Positions 3,444-22,512 of a stretch of 41,430 bases of DNA are shown in pieces. The DNA lies in assembly GCA_964402495.1 (NCBI GenBank), contig CAYODB010000005.1:1-41430 (forward strand), read 5' to 3'. Under the pieces are notes generated by a model. That model was not told the DNA's origin. It worked only from the letters and a program-made list of their open reading frames with translations, and did not search any database. How positions within the stretch are numbered: position 1 is the stretch's first letter; each line of letters begins with the position of its first letter. This stretch comes from an uncultured Bordetella sp. Its GTDB lineage: Bacteria > Pseudomonadota > Gammaproteobacteria > Burkholderiales > JACQAP01. The position numbers and the translations under genes were made by a program.

Positions 3444-4082
3444 ATGAAGACTCTGGACTGGTATTTCGATTTCATTTCTCCTTATGCCTATTTGCAGTGC
3501 GCAAGGTTTCCCGTGCTGCCCGCGGACACGCGATTGCGCATAAAACCGGTGTTGTTCGGCGCCCTGCTCGACAACGCCGGCACCCTCGGGCCCGCGGAAA
3601 TTCCCGGCAAGCGCGAGTTCACTTTCCGCCAGGTCCTGTGGCTGGCCAGCCGCAACGGAGTCAAGCTCAAAGTGCCGCCCCGGCATCCGTTCAATCCCCT
3701 GTCGGTCCTGCGGCTGGCTGTTTCTCTCGATGCGCCGCTGGATACAGTGAAGCGCATTTATGAATTCATCTGGGCCGAAGGCCGCGACCCTTCCGATCCG
3801 AAGGAGTTCGCCGCGCTCGCCGCCGAAATGGGCATTGCCGACGCCGACGCACGTATTGCCGATCCGCAGGTAAAGGCAAGGCTGAAAGCCAACACCGACG
3901 CAGCGATTGCCGCGGGCGTCTGGGGCGTGCCCACTTTCGTGGTGGACGGGTTCTGCTTCTGGGGATTCGATTCCGGCACGATGCTGCTCGACTACCTCGC
4001 CGACCCGACGATCTTCTCCGGCCCTGAGTACGCCCGCATCGATTCACTGCCCTCGGGCATCCAGCGAAAACCTCAATCTTGA
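3444..4082 (+). CDS. 2-hydroxychromene-2-carboxylate isomerase family protein (DsbA-like fold)
   Basis: Track ORF of 212 aa. The MKTLDWYFDFISPYAY N-terminus and overall pattern fit HCCA-isomerase/DsbA-like proteins. Stop TGA 4080-4082 overlaps the first bases of the cassette 2 arm. Confidence 0.75.
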   Translation: MKTLDWYFDFISPYAYLQCARFPVLPADTRLRIKPVLFGALLDNAGTLGPAEIPGKREFTFRQVLWLASRNGVKLKVPPRHPFNPLSVLRLAVSLDAPLDTVKRIYEFIWAEGRDPSDPKEFAALAAEMGIADADARIADPQVKARLKANTDAAIAAGVWGVPTFVVDGFCFWGFDSGTMLLDYLADPTIFSGPEYARIDSLPSGIQRKPQS

Positions 4083-4561
4083 ACCACGGAGGGCACGGAG
4101 AACACGGAGGAATGCAACATGGAAGATGACGAGCTTGGCACTCTGTTGATTGGTTGTGCAATTCAGGTCCATCGCGCGCTGGGACCAGGCCTCTTGGAAG
4201 GCGTGTATGAAGCCTGTCTTCTTCATGAACTGATGAAAACAGGAATTGAAGTCAAAAAACAGGTTCCTGTTTCGTTCCACTACGATGGAATTAATTTCGA
4301 CGAAGGCTTCAGAATCGACATCCTTTATGGCAATCGAATCGTGGTGGAGGTTAAGGCTTCTGAAAAACTTCTGCCAATTCATTCCGCCCAACTCCTGACT
4401 TATTTGAAGCTCATGAACTTGCGAATTGGATATCTCTTAAACTTCAACGTTGAACAAATGCGTCAAGGCGGTATAAAACGCCTCGTAAACGGCTAAGCCC
4501 GCACATTAATTCCATTGCCAAACTCCGTTTTTCTCCGTGTTCTCCGTGCCCTCCGTGGTTC
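4081..4561. mobile_element. Inverted-repeat cassette 2 carrying a GxxExxY gene
   Basis: Arm 4081-4109 is GAACCACGGAGGGCACGGAGAACACGGAG and arm 4533-4561 is its exact reverse complement (29/29). The interior is visibly AT-richer than the flanks and holds one ORF. Confidence 0.8.
4119..4496 (+). CDS. GxxExxY protein (TIGR04256-type, PD-(D/E)XK nuclease superfamily)
   Basis: Track ORF of 125 aa. It has the motif GLLEGVY (GxxExxY) and a D...EVK nuclease-like core (RIDILYGNRIVVEVKA). GGAGG at 4106-4110, inside the last arm unit, lies 8 nt upstream of the ATG. Confidence 0.85.
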   Translation: MEDDELGTLLIGCAIQVHRALGPGLLEGVYEACLLHELMKTGIEVKKQVPVSFHYDGINFDEGFRIDILYGNRIVVEVKASEKLLPIHSAQLLTYLKLMNLRIGYLLNFNVEQMRQGGIKRLVNG

Positions 4562-4581
4562 AGGACTAAATCTTGAAGCCA

Positions 4582-5436
4582 ATGAAGTCTGAATACTTAA
4601 GCATCCGAGGCCTGCGTTACCACATGCGAACCTGGGGCGACGCATCGGCGCCGAAGCTGTTCCTGCTGCACGGCTGGATGGATGTCTCGGCGTCGTTCCA
4701 GTTCGTTGTCGACGAACTGCGGCATGACTGGCATGTCGTCGCACCGGACTGGCGGGGCTTCGGCCTTTCGGAATGGACGCCGGAAGGCTACTGGTTCCCG
4801 GATTACATCGCGGACCTCGACGCGATCCTCCAGCACTACCAGCCGGAATCGCCCGCGTATATCGTCGGCCACAGCATGGGTGGCAACGTCGCCAACCTCT
4901 ATGCCGGCATTCGCCCCGAGCGCGTCGGCAAACTGGTGCTGGCGGAAGGTTTCGGCCTGCCGCCGACCAAGCCCGAGAAGGCGCCCGACCGGTTCGCTAG
5001 CTGGCTCGATGAAATTCGCACCCCTCCAACATTGCGGCCCTACGTGAATTTTGGCGCAGTCGCGCAGCGGCTGAAGGCCAACAACCCGCGCATTACCGAC
5101 GAGCGCGCCACGTTCCTTGCGCCGCATTGGGCCGAGCAACTCGACGACGGCAGCATCCGCTTGCGCGCGGACCCGAGCCACAAGATGGTGAACCCGGTGC
5201 TCTACCGGGTCGAGGAAGCCATGGCCTGCTGGAAGCGCATCACCGCGCCGACCCTATGGCTGTGGGGAGACGGGGAATGGATGATGAAGTGGATGAAAGG
5301 CGACAAGTCGTTGCTTGATCCGTATCGCGCCTGCTACCAGTCCCTGCACGAAGAAACTCTCGCGGATGCGGGCCACATGATGCACCACGACCAGCCCGAG
5401 GAATTCGCTCGGGCAATTGAATCGTTTCTTTACTAA
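4582..5436 (+). CDS. Alpha/beta-fold hydrolase
   Basis: The track ORF starts at TTG 4573, and ATG 4582 (MKSEYLSIRG...) is equally possible. It has the HGWMD oxyanion region and the GHSMGG nucleophile elbow. Confidence 0.85.
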   Translation: MKSEYLSIRGLRYHMRTWGDASAPKLFLLHGWMDVSASFQFVVDELRHDWHVVAPDWRGFGLSEWTPEGYWFPDYIADLDAILQHYQPESPAYIVGHSMGGNVANLYAGIRPERVGKLVLAEGFGLPPTKPEKAPDRFASWLDEIRTPPTLRPYVNFGAVAQRLKANNPRITDERATFLAPHWAEQLDDGSIRLRADPSHKMVNPVLYRVEEAMACWKRITAPTLWLWGDGEWMMKWMKGDKSLLDPYRACYQSLHEETLADAGHMMHHDQPEEFARAIESFLY

Positions 5437-5783
5437 TGCCGTTAAAAAACAGCTCTAACCGCAGAGGACGCGGATACCCTACGTGCGTAGCAGGTCGGAG
5501 TACCCTTTTAGGACGCAGAGGTAGCGCAGAGGAAAAGGCTGAAAGGGAATGCGTGTTGCATTCGCGGTCCGTTACAAATGAACGGCATACTGGCTAACGA
5601 CTGAATTTCAGGGTGAACACCTATGTACGCCCAGCCCTCAGTGGCGCCGGACATCTGCCAATCCTGGTCGAACCTGCCAATCACTTGAATTTGGATCGTA
5701 ACGACTATAGGACGTCTCTCAAAGAGGCATATACCCGACAACTTGCTTTGTACTGTTGACATCCCGGATTAAGGGGAATCGAG

Positions 5784-6671
5784 ATGAGCGAAAAATCATT
5801 GCCCGCCCTCGGCGGAAAGACCTTTGAAGAGCTTAAGCAAGCCAATGCCCACGGTGCGGAATACTGGAGCGCCCGCGACCTGCAGTCAGTATTGGGCTAC
5901 AGTCAGTGGCGGCGTTTCGAGCAGGCTATCGAGCGCGCCAAAACCTCTTGTAAAGAATCTGGAAACAGTCCGGAGCATCACTTTGCCGGCGCCGGCAAAC
6001 CGATCGCTGGCGGGAAGGGAGCTGTTCAACTCGTGGACGATTATCAACTTTCCCGCTTCGCCTGCTACCTCATCGCCCAGAACGGCGACCCGCGCAAGCC
6101 CGAAATTGCCCAAGCCCAAAAGTATTTTGCGGTACAAACCCGCCGTCAGGAACTAAGCGACCAGGCGGCGGCCGATCTGGAACGGCTGGAATTGCGCAAG
6201 CAAACAGCCGAGGAATTCAAAGCATTGTCCGGCGCGGCCCAGGATGCCGGCGTGCAGAACAAGATGTTCGGCGTATTTCACGACGCCGGGTACAAGGGTC
6301 TTTATGGCGGCTTGGGGCGCGACGCAATCAAGGTGCGCAAGGCCATTCCCGACAAAGACAACCTGCTCGACCGCATGAACGCCACCGAACTGGCCGCCAA
6401 TCAATTCCGGATGACGCAGACTCGCGACAAATTGGGTCGTGAACGAGTCCAGAACCAGACCCAAGCCATTCAGACGCATGAACAGGTCGGCAAGAAAGTG
6501 CGGGACGCCATCAAGCGAATCGGCGGAACACTGCCGGAGAACATTGCTCCAGCGGAACACATCAAGGAAGTCGAAAAGCGGCTCAAGACCGCAACACCAA
6601 AACTGGAGCTCGACGATCACGACGCGAGTGGTCTGCTGGGTGACACCCGCGAAAATCCCAAAGGTGAATGA
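5784..6671 (+). CDS. dinD: DNA-damage-inducible protein D (DinD) family protein
   Basis: Track ORF of 295 aa. The N-terminal block ...WSARDLQSVLGYSQWRRFEQAIERAK... and ...LSRFACYLIAQNGDPRKPEIAQAQKYFAVQTRRQE are as in proteins annotated DinD. GC is lower than in neighbouring genes. Confidence 0.7.
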   Translation: MSEKSLPALGGKTFEELKQANAHGAEYWSARDLQSVLGYSQWRRFEQAIERAKTSCKESGNSPEHHFAGAGKPIAGGKGAVQLVDDYQLSRFACYLIAQNGDPRKPEIAQAQKYFAVQTRRQELSDQAAADLERLELRKQTAEEFKALSGAAQDAGVQNKMFGVFHDAGYKGLYGGLGRDAIKVRKAIPDKDNLLDRMNATELAANQFRMTQTRDKLGRERVQNQTQAIQTHEQVGKKVRDAIKRIGGTLPENIAPAEHIKEVEKRLKTATPKLELDDHDASGLLGDTRENPKGE

Positions 6672-6787
6672 CGCTCGTTCATGATCGCGACCCCCATCTC
6701 CTGTTCTTACGACCGAATTGCGTTGAACCGGCAAGGAAAGCCGAAGCTTCACGATACATCCGCTGATCCGAAAGCCACGATAACTCT

Positions 6788-7054
6788 ATGCCCCAACTGA
6801 CTTGGCTCGGCGATCAAGAAGCCAAACGCACTGCGCGCAAAGTGCATTACCGGCTTCTCGATCCCGTCGAGCAGGCGGGCGATCCAGCCGCCGGAAATCT
6901 TCTGATCCAGGGCGACAACCTCGAAGCCCTCAAGGCGCCTCTGCCTTTCTACGCCGATCGGGTGAAATGCATTTTTATCGATCCGCCGTACAACACCAAA
7001 AGCGCGTTCGAGCACTATGACGACAATTTGGAAAATCAATTACCTCACAGTTAA
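6788..7054 (+). pseudogene. N-terminal fragment (about 82 native residues) of an N6/N4 DNA methyltransferase (type III Mod-like)
   Basis: MPQLTWLGDQ...NLLIQGDNLEALKAPLPFYADRVKCIFIDPPYNTKSAFEHYDDNLE carries the DPPY catalytic motif. It then breaks into 6 unrelated codons and a stop, whereas full-length enzymes are several hundred residues longer. Confidence 0.72.
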
Positions 7055-7204
7055 GGGAAGAGATACGCAACTGATCATCGGCTGATCGCACCTTCGGCCA
7101 GCGCCCCTGCCCTTTCTCTGCGTTGATTTTCCTCTGCGTCCTAAAAGGGTACTCCGACGTGCTACGCACGTAGGGTATCCGCGTCCTCTGCGGTGAGCGC
7201 TGCT

Positions 7205-8377
7205 CTAATCCTTTCTGAAGAAGTATGACCCACGCCAAAGCGTCAGGCACGCCGTTGCCAGAAACGCCGCCGCATAGCTGTCGCTGATCGCCACGATCAG
7301 CCAGAACATCATCGGCAAGACGACGACGCCCGCGTAAGTCATCGCCAGCGACGCACCCGTTGCAGCCGCCGCCTTTCCCTGCGGCGCGATGCGCGCCACC
7401 TCCGAAAGGTAGACGCCATTCCATCCTATAGCGGTCAGGCCGTATACGAAGCTCACGGCGAATATGGCCGCCACCGGCCAGGACGCCGTAAATGCGGCGG
7501 TCAGGAGGGCAGCGGTCGACATGCCGATGCCGATGGCGCCCAGCACTGCGCGCGGTTTCGCGAAGTTGTCGGCGACGATCCCCCATGCGATGCGGCCGAT
7601 GATTCCCGCGGCCATCGCCGTCGCCAAAGCCGCGCCGGCGAACTGGACGGAGAAGCCGATTCGCTGCGTGAGATAGACCACCAGGAACGTGCTGAGGCAG
7701 CTTTGCATGCCGGAGTACGTACTGGATGCGAAGCCCATTTCGCGCAGCCGCGGGTGCGCCAGCACCAGGCGCAGAGGTTCGAGCAGGCTCGCGGGTTTGA
7801 TAGGCCGGTCGAAATGCCGCGCAAGATCGACGACCGCGCGATAGGGCTGAATGACGAGCGCCAGTGCGACGCAGGCGAATCCCACGGCAAGGGCCGCCAT
7901 TCTCCATCCGTTCGTCACGATCAGCATTGGCACGATCACGCCTGCCATGGCGCCGCCGATCGGCACGCCGGTTTGCTTCAGGGAAAAAATCAGGCTGCGG
8001 ATGCGCTCGGGCGTGCGATCCGCCAGGATCGAAGAACTGGACGGGGTTACCGGACCGTAGCCCAAGCCCATGACCAGCGCGCCCATCGCGACCATCCAGG
8101 GGTTTGCCGTGGAAATCAGCGCAATGCCGGCGCCGCACAACAGCAGCGAATACTGGCTCATGCGCATCGGACCGACTTTCGCGATGATGCCACCGGAGAA
8201 CAGCGCGCCGAAGGTGGCGGCACCGAAAGTCAGTTCAGTAACCAGGCCAACCCAGCTTGCCGGAAACCCGATCTCATCGTGCGCGGCCGGCGCGAAGACC
8301 GGCGGCGCAAATACCGCCATCGACACCAGCGCCTGGATGGCCATGGTGACGATCAACGGCCAGATGACACCTTTCAT
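7205..8377 (-). CDS. MFS transporter
   Basis: Track ORF 7205..8548. The first 57 codons translate cassette 4 (FLRVLRVLRVL...), so I place the start at ATG 8377 (MKGVIWPLIV...). It has about 12 hydrophobic helices. Confidence 0.85.
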   Translation of the reverse strand: MKGVIWPLIVTMAIQALVSMAVFAPPVFAPAAHDEIGFPASWVGLVTELTFGAATFGALFSGGIIAKVGPMRMSQYSLLLCGAGIALISTANPWMVAMGALVMGLGYGPVTPSSSSILADRTPERIRSLIFSLKQTGVPIGGAMAGVIVPMLIVTNGWRMAALAVGFACVALALVIQPYRAVVDLARHFDRPIKPASLLEPLRLVLAHPRLREMGFASSTYSGMQSCLSTFLVVYLTQRIGFSVQFAGAALATAMAAGIIGRIAWGIVADNFAKPRAVLGAIGIGMSTAALLTAAFTASWPVAAIFAVSFVYGLTAIGWNGVYLSEVARIAPQGKAAAATGASLAMTYAGVVVLPMMFWLIVAISDSYAAAFLATACLTLWRGSYFFRKD

Positions 8378-8383
8378 TCTAAT

Positions 8384-8631
8384 TCTTGAACCACGGATAC
8401 CCTCGCCTAGCGTGGAGTACCCTTTTAGGACACGGAGAACACGGAGAACACGGAGGAAAACCAGGAAAGAGAATGGGCGTTGAAGAGAAGGGCAAGTTGG
8501 CAGCGACGATCCTATTCGTTGTGCGAGCATCGAATGACGGATATTCATGCCAGATCACTGCGCACCTCCCACGACCAGCTTGTCTCGTCCTTGTTTTCCT
8601 CCGTGCTCTCCGTGTCCTCCGTGGTCCAAGA
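8384..8631. repeat. Inverted-repeat cassette 4 (9-nt ACACGGAGA units, no intact cargo)
   Basis: The left arm 8384-8460 contains a 34-nt nested insert at 8396-8429. The right arm 8594-8631 is TTTTCCTCCGTGCTCTCCGTGTCCTCCGTGGTCCAAGA. The cassette fills the spacer between the metY stop (8633) and the MFS start (8377). Confidence 0.85.
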
Positions 8632-8632
8632 C

Positions 8633-9919
8633 CTAGGCTTTGGACTGGCCGAGCGCCTGGTCGAGATCCCACAGGATATCGTCGATGTCCTCGATGCCGA
8701 TCGAGATGCGGATCATGTCGGGACCGACGCCGGCCTTGATCTGGTCTTCTTCTGACAACTGGCGGTGGGTAGTGGACGCGGGATGGATCACCAGGGTCTT
8801 GGCGTCGCCGACGTTGGCGAGATGCGAGAAGAACTGCAGGGCCTCGATGAACTTGACCCCGGCCTCCATGCCGCCCTTGATGCCGAAGGTCATGATGGAA
8901 CCCGTGCCTTTGGGCAGGTATTTCTGCGCCAGGGCGTGATACTTGCTGCCGGGAAGGCCAGGGTAATTGACCCAGGAGACGCGCGGATGACCTTCGAGGA
9001 ATTTCGCGACCGCCATGGCATTGGCGACGTGGCGTTCGACGCGCACGTGCAGGGTCTCGAGACCCTGCAACAGCATCCAGGCGTTGAAAGGCGAAAGCAC
9101 GGGACCGAGCGTCCGCATGGTTTCCATGCGGCACTTCATGGTGTAGCCGAAGTCGCCGAAGGTCTCGTGGAATATCACACCGTGATAGCCGCGCGAGGGT
9201 TCGGTCATCATCGGAAACTTGCCGTTGCCCCAGGGAAACTTACCGGATTCGACCAGCACGCCCCCCATGGTGGTACCGTGGCCGCCGATGAACTTGGTGG
9301 CGGAATGGATCACGATGTCCGCACCGAACTTGATCGGCTGGCACAGGTAAGGCGAAGCAAAGGTGTTGTCGATCATCAGCGGCACGCCCGCTTCTTTCGC
9401 AATGTTCGCGACAGCCTCAATGTCGAGCACATTGATTTGCGGATTGCCCATGGTTTCAGCGTAGAGCACGCGGGTTCGGGGCGTGATCACCTTACGGAAA
9501 TTCTCCGGGTCGTCCGGATGGACGAAGACCGTCTTGATGCCGAACTGGCGGAAGGTCACATCGAACTGCGAATAGGTGCCGCCGTACAGCGTGCTGGCGG
9601 AAACGATCTCGTCGCCTTCGCGCAGGATGGTGAGCAGGGCGCACATCTGCGCCGCCTGGCCCGAAGAGGTCGCCAGCGCCGCCCGCCCGCCTTCGAGGGC
9701 TGCCATCCTTTCCTCGAAAACGGCCACTGTCGGATTCGAGATGCGCGAATAGACGTTACCGAAGGTCTGCAGGTTGAACAGGCTCGCCGCATGCTCGGGG
9801 GAATCGAAGACGAACGACGTGGTCTGGTAGATTGGCACCGCGCGCGCGCCCGTTGCCGCGTCGGGGATCTGACCTGCATGAAGGCACAAGGTGCCGAATC
9901 CGAATTCTCTGTCTGCCAT
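8633..9919 (-). CDS. metY: O-acetylhomoserine aminocarboxypropyltransferase/sulfhydrylase
   Basis: Track ORF of 428 aa. FGTLCLHAGQ...PIYQTTSF...NPT... and the SATKFIGGHG PLP-lysine region are typical of MetY/Cys-Met PLP enzymes. Confidence 0.92.
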   Translation of the reverse strand: MADREFGFGTLCLHAGQIPDAATGARAVPIYQTTSFVFDSPEHAASLFNLQTFGNVYSRISNPTVAVFEERMAALEGGRAALATSSGQAAQMCALLTILREGDEIVSASTLYGGTYSQFDVTFRQFGIKTVFVHPDDPENFRKVITPRTRVLYAETMGNPQINVLDIEAVANIAKEAGVPLMIDNTFASPYLCQPIKFGADIVIHSATKFIGGHGTTMGGVLVESGKFPWGNGKFPMMTEPSRGYHGVIFHETFGDFGYTMKCRMETMRTLGPVLSPFNAWMLLQGLETLHVRVERHVANAMAVAKFLEGHPRVSWVNYPGLPGSKYHALAQKYLPKGTGSIMTFGIKGGMEAGVKFIEALQFFSHLANVGDAKTLVIHPASTTHRQLSEEDQIKAGVGPDMIRISIGIEDIDDILWDLDQALGQSKA

Positions 9920-9926
9920 GATGGTT

Positions 9927-10096
9927 CAGTGAATAGTGAATAGTGAATAGTGAACGGTGAATGGTGAATGGTAATCAGTGAACGGTGAACGGTGAATAGT
10001 AAACGGTGATCAGTGATCGGTTAACCGTGAAAGGCAATCAGTACGCGGGAATTGGTCTCGCCTTTACCGATCGCTGTTCACCGATTACCGTTCGCC
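9927..10096. repeat. Inverted-repeat cassette 5 (heptamer array)
   Basis: About 15 in-phase heptamers (CAGTGAA, TAGTGAA x3, CGGTGAA, TGGTGAA...) span 9927-10031. After a short central segment, about 5 reverse-complement heptamers (GTTCACC/GATTACC type) run to 10096. Confidence 0.88.
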
Positions 10097-22274: not shown

Positions 22275-22296
22275 CTAAAACCTTTCTACAGCAAGC

Positions 22297-22512
22297 GCTC
22301 ACCGCAGAGGACGCGGAGGACGCAGAGGAATGACAAGGGCGAGGAAGAAACTGGAATCAATTGCGGGCGCGGATAATCGCGGCTTTACATGGCCAATATA
22401 CATCGACGTGGGCAGCAGGTTCATCAACTCGCCAGGCAATCCCTTGTCGCTGTTTCTCTCTTTGGGTTTCCTCTGCGTCCTCCGCGTCCTCCGCGTCCTC
22501 TGCGGTGAGAGC
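22297..22512. repeat. Inverted-repeat cassette 7 (9-nt ACGCRGAGG units, no cargo)
   Basis: Arm 22297-22330 is GCTCACCGCAGAGGACGCGGAGGACGCAGAGGAA. Arm 22468-22512 is its reverse complement with one extra unit (4 versus 3). The spacer is 137 bp. Confidence 0.88.

Follow-up and report, generated by a model that had tools for sequence, protein, structure and literature searches.

Multi-copy intergenic palindromes are familiar from several known classes of bacterial element, including cargo units bounded by miniature inverted-repeat transposable elements (MITEs), mobile insertion cassettes, and palindromes of the repetitive extragenic palindromic (REP/REPIN) type, some of which enclose passenger genes between their arms. 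Another well-described kind of variable locus is the defence hotspot, which lies between conserved core genes in the pan-genomes of E. coli and Pseudomonas and is generally thought to exchange its content by recombination through the flanking genes. Here we describe a locus at which these two kinds of structure coincide. It lies in a stretch of 41,430 nucleotides (hereafter the window) from an uncultured Bordetella sp. (contig CAYODB010000005.1 of GenBank assembly GCA_964402495.1), where long inverted arms enclose an intact dinD gene and the first codons of a Type III mod gene. The explanation that we favor, to which we assign a probability of roughly 60%, is that two residents of this site, a palindromic cassette and a defence hotspot, lie superimposed, and that a restriction-modification (R-M) system decayed in place.

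Inverted arms around dinD and a truncated mod gene

An initial annotation, made from the sequence of the window alone, had described inverted arms that bracket 1.6 kb of lower-GC DNA and a unit that fills the spacer between two convergent genes. Both descriptions agree with our results. A repeat search of the window returned an inverted repeat of 72 nucleotides that is 96% complementary, with the left arm at positions 5450-5521, the right arm at 7131-7202 and a spacing of 1,609 nucleotides (strand is assigned here only to genes and to regions associated with them). Both arms grow to about 95 nucleotides if an imperfect, indel-containing extension is included, which carries the left arm to about position 5545. 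The left arm consists, in order, of an outer terminus, CGCAGAGGA-type nonamers, a nested 36-nucleotide piece (5475-5510) and an inner nonamer, and the right arm carries its nested piece at 7142-7177. When joined by a short linker, the arms yield a folding energy of -102 kcal/mol (z = -20), and the window contains three copies of a 25-mer taken from the arm, versus zero in 100 shuffles. With 1.6 kb between them, the arms probably no longer form the compact hairpin of a normal cassette. The GC fraction of the interior is 0.51-0.59, versus 0.62-0.68 for the flanking genes.

The left border of the slot is the stop codon (5436) of a core gene for an alpha/beta hydrolase (4573-5436, plus strand; Pfam Abhydrolase_1, E 2e-26), and the right border is the stop codon (7205) of a convergent core gene for a major facilitator superfamily (MFS) transporter (7205-8377, minus strand; Pfam MFS_1, E 2e-30). 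The two arms, dinD and the mod fragment wholly fill the spacer between these stops. Five independent metagenome assemblies, along with Logan contigs from at least eight microbial-mat runs, tile this structure identically with zero differences, and therefore the element is not an assembly artefact.

The open reading frame (ORF) at 6788-7054 (plus strand, 88 amino acids) matches the PADLOC model MTase_III PDLC03644 with an E-value of 1.7e-33 over profile positions 1-85 of 542. Profile and homologue alignments assign its codons 1-82 (6788-7033), including motif IV (DPPY), to a Type III Mod methyltransferase. This fragment is 68% identical to a 509-amino-acid Mod from a Vibrio plasmid, which is followed directly by a 900-amino-acid ResIII helicase, and the DPPY block is identical at 24 of 24 positions. 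The fragment is also 92% identical to the 505-amino-acid Mod of a relative (locus L026), with DNA homology extending across 6788-7026. In a length-unrestricted search of 1.8 billion representatives, all alignments end at query residue about 83. The similarity stops after FEHYDDNLE (...IDPPYNTKSAFEHYDDNLE) at residue 82, nucleotide 7033, and is followed by six unrelated codons and a stop codon (7052-7054) that are supplied by an unassigned stretch of 39 nucleotides (7034-7072). This stop lies 76 nucleotides before the perfect right arm and about 51 nucleotides before its imperfect extension. Thus, the abrupt end within a Mod-type methyltransferase, as read by the initial annotation, is borne out, and the enzyme can be placed in the Type III class.

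Type III R-M systems of the EcoP15I-like kind consist of a mod-res pair, and L026 carries an orthologous pair in full. The window resembles these systems in that its N-terminal 82 residues, motif IV included, match Mod profiles, but it differs in keeping only 16% of Mod with no res gene alongside. The AdoMet-binding region (motif I) and the target-recognition domain are both absent, and no other Mod or Res match is present within the 41-kb window. Because motif IV is the sole surviving motif, the stub is a dead pseudogene. Its ratio of nonsynonymous to synonymous divergence (dN/dS) relative to L026 is about 0.05, and therefore most of the divergence would have arisen while mod was functional, which points to a fairly recent truncation.

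In contrast to the mod fragment, the dinD gene (5784-6671, plus strand) is intact, as the initial annotation had proposed. Its 295-amino-acid product includes a Pfam Bro-N domain and scores 369.9 bits against NCBIfam NF008573 (equivalog cut-off 242) over profile positions 10-284 of 288. When compared with its counterpart in another relative (L007), the gene exhibits a dN of 0.030, a dS of 0.341 and a dN/dS of about 0.09, and from this ratio dinD is judged to be alive and under purifying selection. An association with defence, also part of the initial annotation, is evident from a match of 365 bits to the PADLOC phage-defence candidate PDC-S13 and from a Sterolibacterium contig (L013) in which a DinD that is 84% identical adjoins genes for DUF2130, SIR2_2 and a HerA-like ATPase. 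Another PADLOC model, for a Type I specificity subunit, is matched over its N-terminal half.

The DinD family owes its name to SOS (LexA) regulation. The window protein resembles E. coli DinD in that it exceeds the equivalog cut-off over its full length and carries the Bro-N domain, but the gene differs in its location within a defence hotspot and in its lack of a LexA-type box upstream. A pattern search for CTG-N10-CAG revealed no such box in 5540-5790, nor upstream of dinD in the relatives L040 and L007. E. coli DinD is described as an inhibitor of the filaments that RecA forms (Uranga et al., 2011; cited in PMC10602874 and PMC4457935). By family, the window protein would be a Bro-N DNA-binding protein, and any activity in this genome is predicted on the same basis.

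The DNA on either side of dinD also has counterparts in relatives. Homology with L040 begins at 5727, which is 57 nucleotides 5′ of the ATG, and in L040 this region (5727-5783, plus strand) directly follows the hydrolase stop and thus travels with dinD. Homology with L007 covers 5770-6667. Downstream, 6668-6766 (plus strand) possibly represents a 32-codon remnant of a gene for a 106-amino-acid protein (orf106), as it overlaps dinD by a 4-nucleotide start/stop overlap just as in L007. The similarity to the L007 protein is weak (33% identity over 33 amino acids, E 0.003, in a single comparison). In L007 itself (2529-2849), and likewise in L006, L008, L009 and L012, the complete 106-amino-acid ORF overlaps the dinD stop by 4 nucleotides. 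This arrangement suggests translational coupling, and the protein, which matches no Pfam or PADLOC model, may be an uncharacterised DinD partner in this clade.

The left, non-coding part of the interior (5546-5726, 'loop L') matches nothing by BLAST, whether in the roughly 130 loci that were fetched or elsewhere in the window, and the 39-nucleotide stretch at 7034-7072 likewise has no match in any of the fetched loci. Both are present only in sequencing runs that hold the whole element. The segment at 7073-7130, which comprises right loop DNA and the imperfect inner extension of the right arm, is common to the window and a relative called L017. A search of 5300-8700 against Rfam in a permissive E-value mode gave no match, and promoter and terminator scans gave counts that were not above those of shuffled sequences.

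The hydrolase-MFS slot across relatives

With the hydrolase as query, species-representative genomes yielded 36 loci from metagenome-assembled genomes (MAGs) of uncultured Burkholderiales/Betaproteobacteria, and exact-protein look-ups of close DinD relatives contributed nine further metagenome loci. Hydrolase orthologues at 28 MAG loci are 77-92% identical to that of the window. An exact-protein look-up of the 287-amino-acid hydrolase itself returned no record; the called gene begins at a later ATG.

The content of the slot varies widely among these loci. It is empty in L018 and L019 (10-26 nucleotides), short and without recognisable content in L030 and L042 (55-115 nucleotides), and occupied by a DUF4440 gene alone at 11 loci, basal ones included. 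DUF4440 stands beside other genes in L038 and L041. Short gene-less cassettes whose outer termini are as in the window are present in L021, which carries the nested piece in its right arm only, and in L023, which has no nested piece, and L022 holds the collapsed remnant of a cassette. A complete Septu system occupies the slot in L020 (8959-11003; PADLOC scores of 537 bits for PtuA and 123 bits for PtuB). At L006-L012 the order is VapB, PIN, a helix-turn-helix (HTH) gene, DinD and orf106, followed by another inverted-repeat element and DUF4440. In L026 (8926-14166), VapB, PIN and HTH precede a complete Type III R-M system (Mod of 505 and Res of 935 amino acids) with no arms. Decayed contents are also present: HTH, codons 1-67 of Mod and DUF4440, with no arms, in L027; a frameshifted HTH gene and DUF4440 in L029; and a frameshifted dinD and DUF4440 in L040. 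Finally, L017 lacks a left arm and carries VapB and PIN, followed by the loop and arm that form the right side of the element in the window. Both counterparts that the initial annotation had envisaged in relatives, namely a full R-M system at the same locus and an empty site, are therefore represented.

These data establish the hydrolase-MFS slot as a defence hotspot in which different defence systems reside between the same core genes. As in hotspots described elsewhere, one gene pair brackets nothing at all or one of several contents (Septu, Type III R-M, VapBC, or the PADLOC candidate that resembles DinD), an integrase is absent, and the cargo is younger than its flanks as estimated from dS. 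The present slot differs in that a palindromic cassette is resident at the hotspot and, in the window, has the cargo between its arms, and in that this cargo is a decayed remnant. Within this clade, dinD and mod-res are alternative modules that follow the same HTH gene, and they are adjacent only in the window. The small HTH gene, which lies directly upstream of mod in L026 and of dinD in L007, may encode a controller protein.

Two side observations concern the L006 and L007 loci. In L006 (3474-9474), the VapBC-HTH-DinD-orf106 islet is as in L007 and the DinD protein is identical, but the right flank consists of NAD_binding_10 and aminotransferase genes rather than DUF4440-MFS, and this neighbourhood appears rearranged. 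Between orf106 and DUF4440 in L007 (2927-3094), and at L006:3865-4040, there is a different short palindromic element whose arms (CTAGGAGCCTGTCGGACTTAGG) are 124 nucleotides apart.

No arm pair is present in any gene-bearing slot of the relatives. The dinD gene occupies the slot without arms in L006-L012 and L040, as does mod in L026 and L027, and cassettes occupy it without these genes. Therefore, judged by synteny, relatives without arms have dinD and mod as natives of the slot, and relatives without those genes have the arms as natives of it. The initial annotation had interpreted the interior as a fragment of an R-M or defence locus that was either captured or truncated by the cassette. 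Of these ideas, the R-M debris is borne out. Capture by the cassette is not supported, as dinD and mod are syntenic in relatives that have no arms. Truncation by the cassette is unproven; Mod is cut independently at codon 67 in the armless L027, and 39 nucleotides of unrelated DNA separate the mod break in the window from cassette-derived sequence.

The closest relative of the window locus is L017, with a hydrolase that is 92% identical and an MFS protein that is 93% identical. DNA homology between the two loci (window 7073-7258, L017 2288-2473; 92%) spans the right arm and continues into the MFS gene. The extended right arm (7106-7204) matches the solo arm of L017 at 97 of 99 positions and the adjoining loop matches at 24 of 33 positions, versus 76-82% identity at third-codon positions of the flanks. 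The shared loop and arm DNA begins at the same nucleotide in both loci (window 7073, L017 2288), and the DNA to the left is unrelated in each. Nucleotide 7073 may thus be a preferred break point in the loop. In L017, the 72 nucleotides to the left of this junction gave no significant match to dinD, HTH or other sequence.

Synonymous divergence differs between the islet and its flanks. When the window is compared with L007, dS is 0.34 for dinD, whereas the hydrolase and the MFS gene reach 0.97 and 1.09, and when compared with L026 it is 0.60 for the Mod stub versus 0.98 and 1.27 for the flanks. Likewise, L007 and L026 differ by a dS of 0.33 for VapB and PIN versus 0.73 for the hydrolase. Because their dS is lower, the islet genes would be younger than the flanks, which suggests horizontal exchange among these lineages. 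In a hydrolase tree, the window, L017 and L018 form a supported clade (100/97) that includes three different slot states, cassette- and islet-bearing lineages are scattered, and the DUF4440-only loci include basal groups.

Low islet dS, patchy slot content on the hydrolase tree and the absence of an integrase or transposase from the element could also be explained if the entire arrangement of arm, islet and arm arose in another lineage and entered by homologous recombination that used the hydrolase and MFS genes on either side. We consider this replacement of the whole slot improbable, as none of the 36 genome and nine metagenome loci is a donor with such an arrangement, and the identity of the hydrolase 3′ end is not raised beside the slot.

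A family of cassettes with nonamer arms

Eight inverted-repeat cassettes built of 9-nucleotide units (CRCRGAGGA and related) are present in the window, and each begins at an outer terminus of a type such as ...CACCGC/AACCAC and has GGAGGAAAA on the inner side. One of these (4077-4565) encloses a gene for a 125-amino-acid PDDEXK_3 (GxxExxY) protein. The family is defined by arms of at least three 9-nucleotide units that end in a GGAGGAAAA-like sequence and that are multi-copy and intergenic, and the arms around dinD and mod belong to it by this definition. The interior is atypical, as it spans 1,609 nucleotides with dinD and truncated mod rather than 95-150 nucleotides or one small gene for a GxxExxY or four-helix-bundle protein. 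In mat metagenomes, the depth of the arms is 20-45 times the single-copy depth.

The arms under study correspond to the arm of the cassette at 22295-22512 with the extra 36-nucleotide piece placed within the nonamer array. This nested piece of 30-36 nucleotides comprises GGGTACTCC, a small hairpin and AGGGTA, and it occupies the same position within arms of different nonamer flavours (window 5475-5510, 7142-7177 and 8398-8430; L017, L021 and L053-L132). Pieces identical to those of the window also reside in arms of another nonamer flavour (L083, L122). Two hairpin forms are observed, ACGC-loop-GCG and ACGTGC-TA-GCACGT, in which the stem varies and the pairing is kept. A metagenome scan for the nested piece identified at least 116 stretches, from which 80 loci were listed and fetched. 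Most cassettes among these listed loci carry the piece in one arm only, and 6 of the 80 have two matches on opposite strands. A search for partner arms revealed that L069, L097 and L122 are further cassettes in which each arm contains the piece.

The distribution of this piece bears on the possibility that the left arm is secondary. By this account, an ancestor resembling L017 (hydrolase, VapBC-HTH-dinD-...-mod-res, right arm, MFS) underwent a repair or rearrangement event in which VapBC-HTH was lost and an inverted copy of the right arm was placed at the left edge, such that the palindrome is new rather than an old cassette into which the islet came. The single right arm of L017 is consistent with such an event, as is the occurrence of the nested piece in both window arms with one mismatch when L021 has it in the right arm only, and the 96% likeness of the window arms can be read in the same way. 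However, the left loop of 181 nucleotides is not a copy of the right loop, and nested pieces in both arms characterise a regular subtype of short cassette (the 6 of 80 listed loci and the three from the partner search), for which no special event is required. Moreover, arms evolve slowly (98% identity between species), so that 96% identity between two arms is no sign of a recent copy. We therefore regard a secondary left arm as an unlikely origin, albeit one that deserves consideration.

Typical interiors among the 80 listed loci are 95-150 nucleotides long, and besides the element described here only L122 exceeds 1 kb. This second large cassette (L122:2142-3486) has 75-nucleotide arms that are 96% complementary, lie 1,195 nucleotides apart and carry two tandem nested pieces, and its lower-GC interior encodes unrelated small membrane-like ORFs without family matches. 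Two other candidates were rejected: an apparent 3.9-kb cassette in L083 consists of two separate short cassettes, and an apparent 1.8-kb cassette in L076 has no inverted repeat.

Classification of the element with integron gene cassettes was also rejected. Integron cassettes have an IntI integrase nearby and each ends, at its 3′ side, in a single attC, but here none of the genes called in the 10 kb to the left and to the right is an integrase, and repeats lie on both sides of the cargo. The nonamer-arm family is more similar to MITE-bounded cargo units, mobile insertion cassettes and REP/REPIN palindromes, as all are multi-copy intergenic palindromes without an internal transposase whose arms occasionally surround passenger genes. 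It differs from these in that its arms are arrays of 9-nucleotide repeats, in that the window element has no target-site duplication or second copy, and in that the gene-bearing form carries a GxxExxY gene of the PD-(D/E)XK fold rather than a RAYT or DDE transposase. We found no description of such arms in the literature on GxxExxY/PDDEXK_3 proteins, and thus the family is apparently undescribed.

This resemblance invites an interpretation in which the arms serve as terminal inverted repeats of a mobile composite, and dinD and truncated mod were captured elsewhere and transposed to this site. The long, 96% complementary arms of 72 nucleotides, the lower-GC interior and the lack of an internal transposase would be expected for such an element, and L122 provides an example of the same arm type around large, unrelated cargo. 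Yet dinD and mod are syntenic in the slot of armless relatives, the arms are positionally orthologous to gene-less cassettes of relatives, and the flanks (TTAAAAAA on the left, CTCTAATC on the right) reveal no target-site duplication. Furthermore, the exact DinD protein is present on 9 contigs in a single context throughout, and sequencing reads include no excised or alternative form of the element. Read joints that connect 5471/5474 to 7178/7181 and 5519 to 7157 were considered as excision products and rejected, as their shorter sides extend only 20-23 nucleotides at mirrored arm positions and they therefore come from other family members. Consequently, we disfavor a mobile composite as highly improbable.

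Another spacer in the window informs how family members change over time. The spacer between the MFS gene and metY holds a cassette both in the window (8378-8633) and in L017 (3593-3778), but these are of different nonamer flavours (CACGGAG versus CGCAAAG) and only 49% identical, when the flanking genes are about 90% identical. This appears to be the replacement of a cassette at a fixed position. Taken together with the conservation of the arm in the hydrolase-MFS slot, the comparison indicates that arms are either conserved or swapped whole, with no drift. Upstream of metY, at 9915-10026, there is also a run of 7-nucleotide tandem units (GTGAATA / GTGAACG), which the repeat search classed as a family of direct repeats.

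A probable superposition of a resident cassette and a resident hotspot

Our preferred explanation is that the convergent hydrolase-MFS spacer is the home of a palindromic cassette with nonamer arms, and that the same spacer is a hotspot for horizontally exchanged and variously decayed VapBC, HTH, DinD-orf106, Type III Mod-Res and Septu modules. The piece of islet between the arms would comprise dinD with 57 nucleotides of its own upstream DNA, a stub of the partner gene that follows it, and codons 1-82 of mod. As its most likely and simplest route, foreign islet DNA would have entered the loop of the resident cassette by illegitimate recombination, after which a deletion would have removed the rest of mod and all of res. 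The anatomy of the element, the identity of its genes, the variability of the slot, the residence of the arms and the lower dS of the islet are observed; entry into the loop and the sequence of events are inferred, as is any activity of DinD in this genome.

Several points weigh against this explanation. None of the 36 genome and nine metagenome loci carries both arms and a complete islet, and no empty cassette with the loop DNA of the window was found among them, so that loop insertion is not seen directly. The left loop has no homologue anywhere searched. The nested 36-nucleotide piece is in the left arm of the window and not in that of L021, and L017 has no left arm, such that the left arm may be a secondary copy of the right. 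In addition, the dS contrast is possibly inflated in part by the composition or codon usage of the islet, and the hydrolase tree represents one gene with a poorly resolved backbone.

A broader proposal is that the loop of nonamer-arm cassettes is a preferred, structure-determined site for the entry and breakage of foreign DNA, in which case palindromes would both seed and erode defence hotspots. Breakage might then result from cleavage of the hairpin or from the family-encoded GxxExxY proteins with a nuclease fold. The proposal stems from the unrelated cargo of L122 and from the fact that the window and L017 carry different islet remnants, both of which abut exactly the same loop nucleotide (7073), and we consider it doubtful at present.

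The gene content of the element is ordinary for a defence hotspot, with a live dinD and a dead Type III mod. The value of the locus lies instead in the natural series of slot states, which extends across relatives from an empty slot through a cassette without genes and a collapsed remnant to a single arm beside VapBC, islet debris between two arms, and complete islets that have no arms. This series reveals that members of a cassette family stay at one intergenic position across species, where they are either conserved (98%) or replaced wholesale, and that such cassettes can come to flank accessory genes that they did not transport. Therefore, inverted repeats plus foreign genes should not be equated with a transposon. 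The hydrolase-MFS slot also offers a concrete locus for asking whether such palindromes promote the acquisition and loss of DNA.

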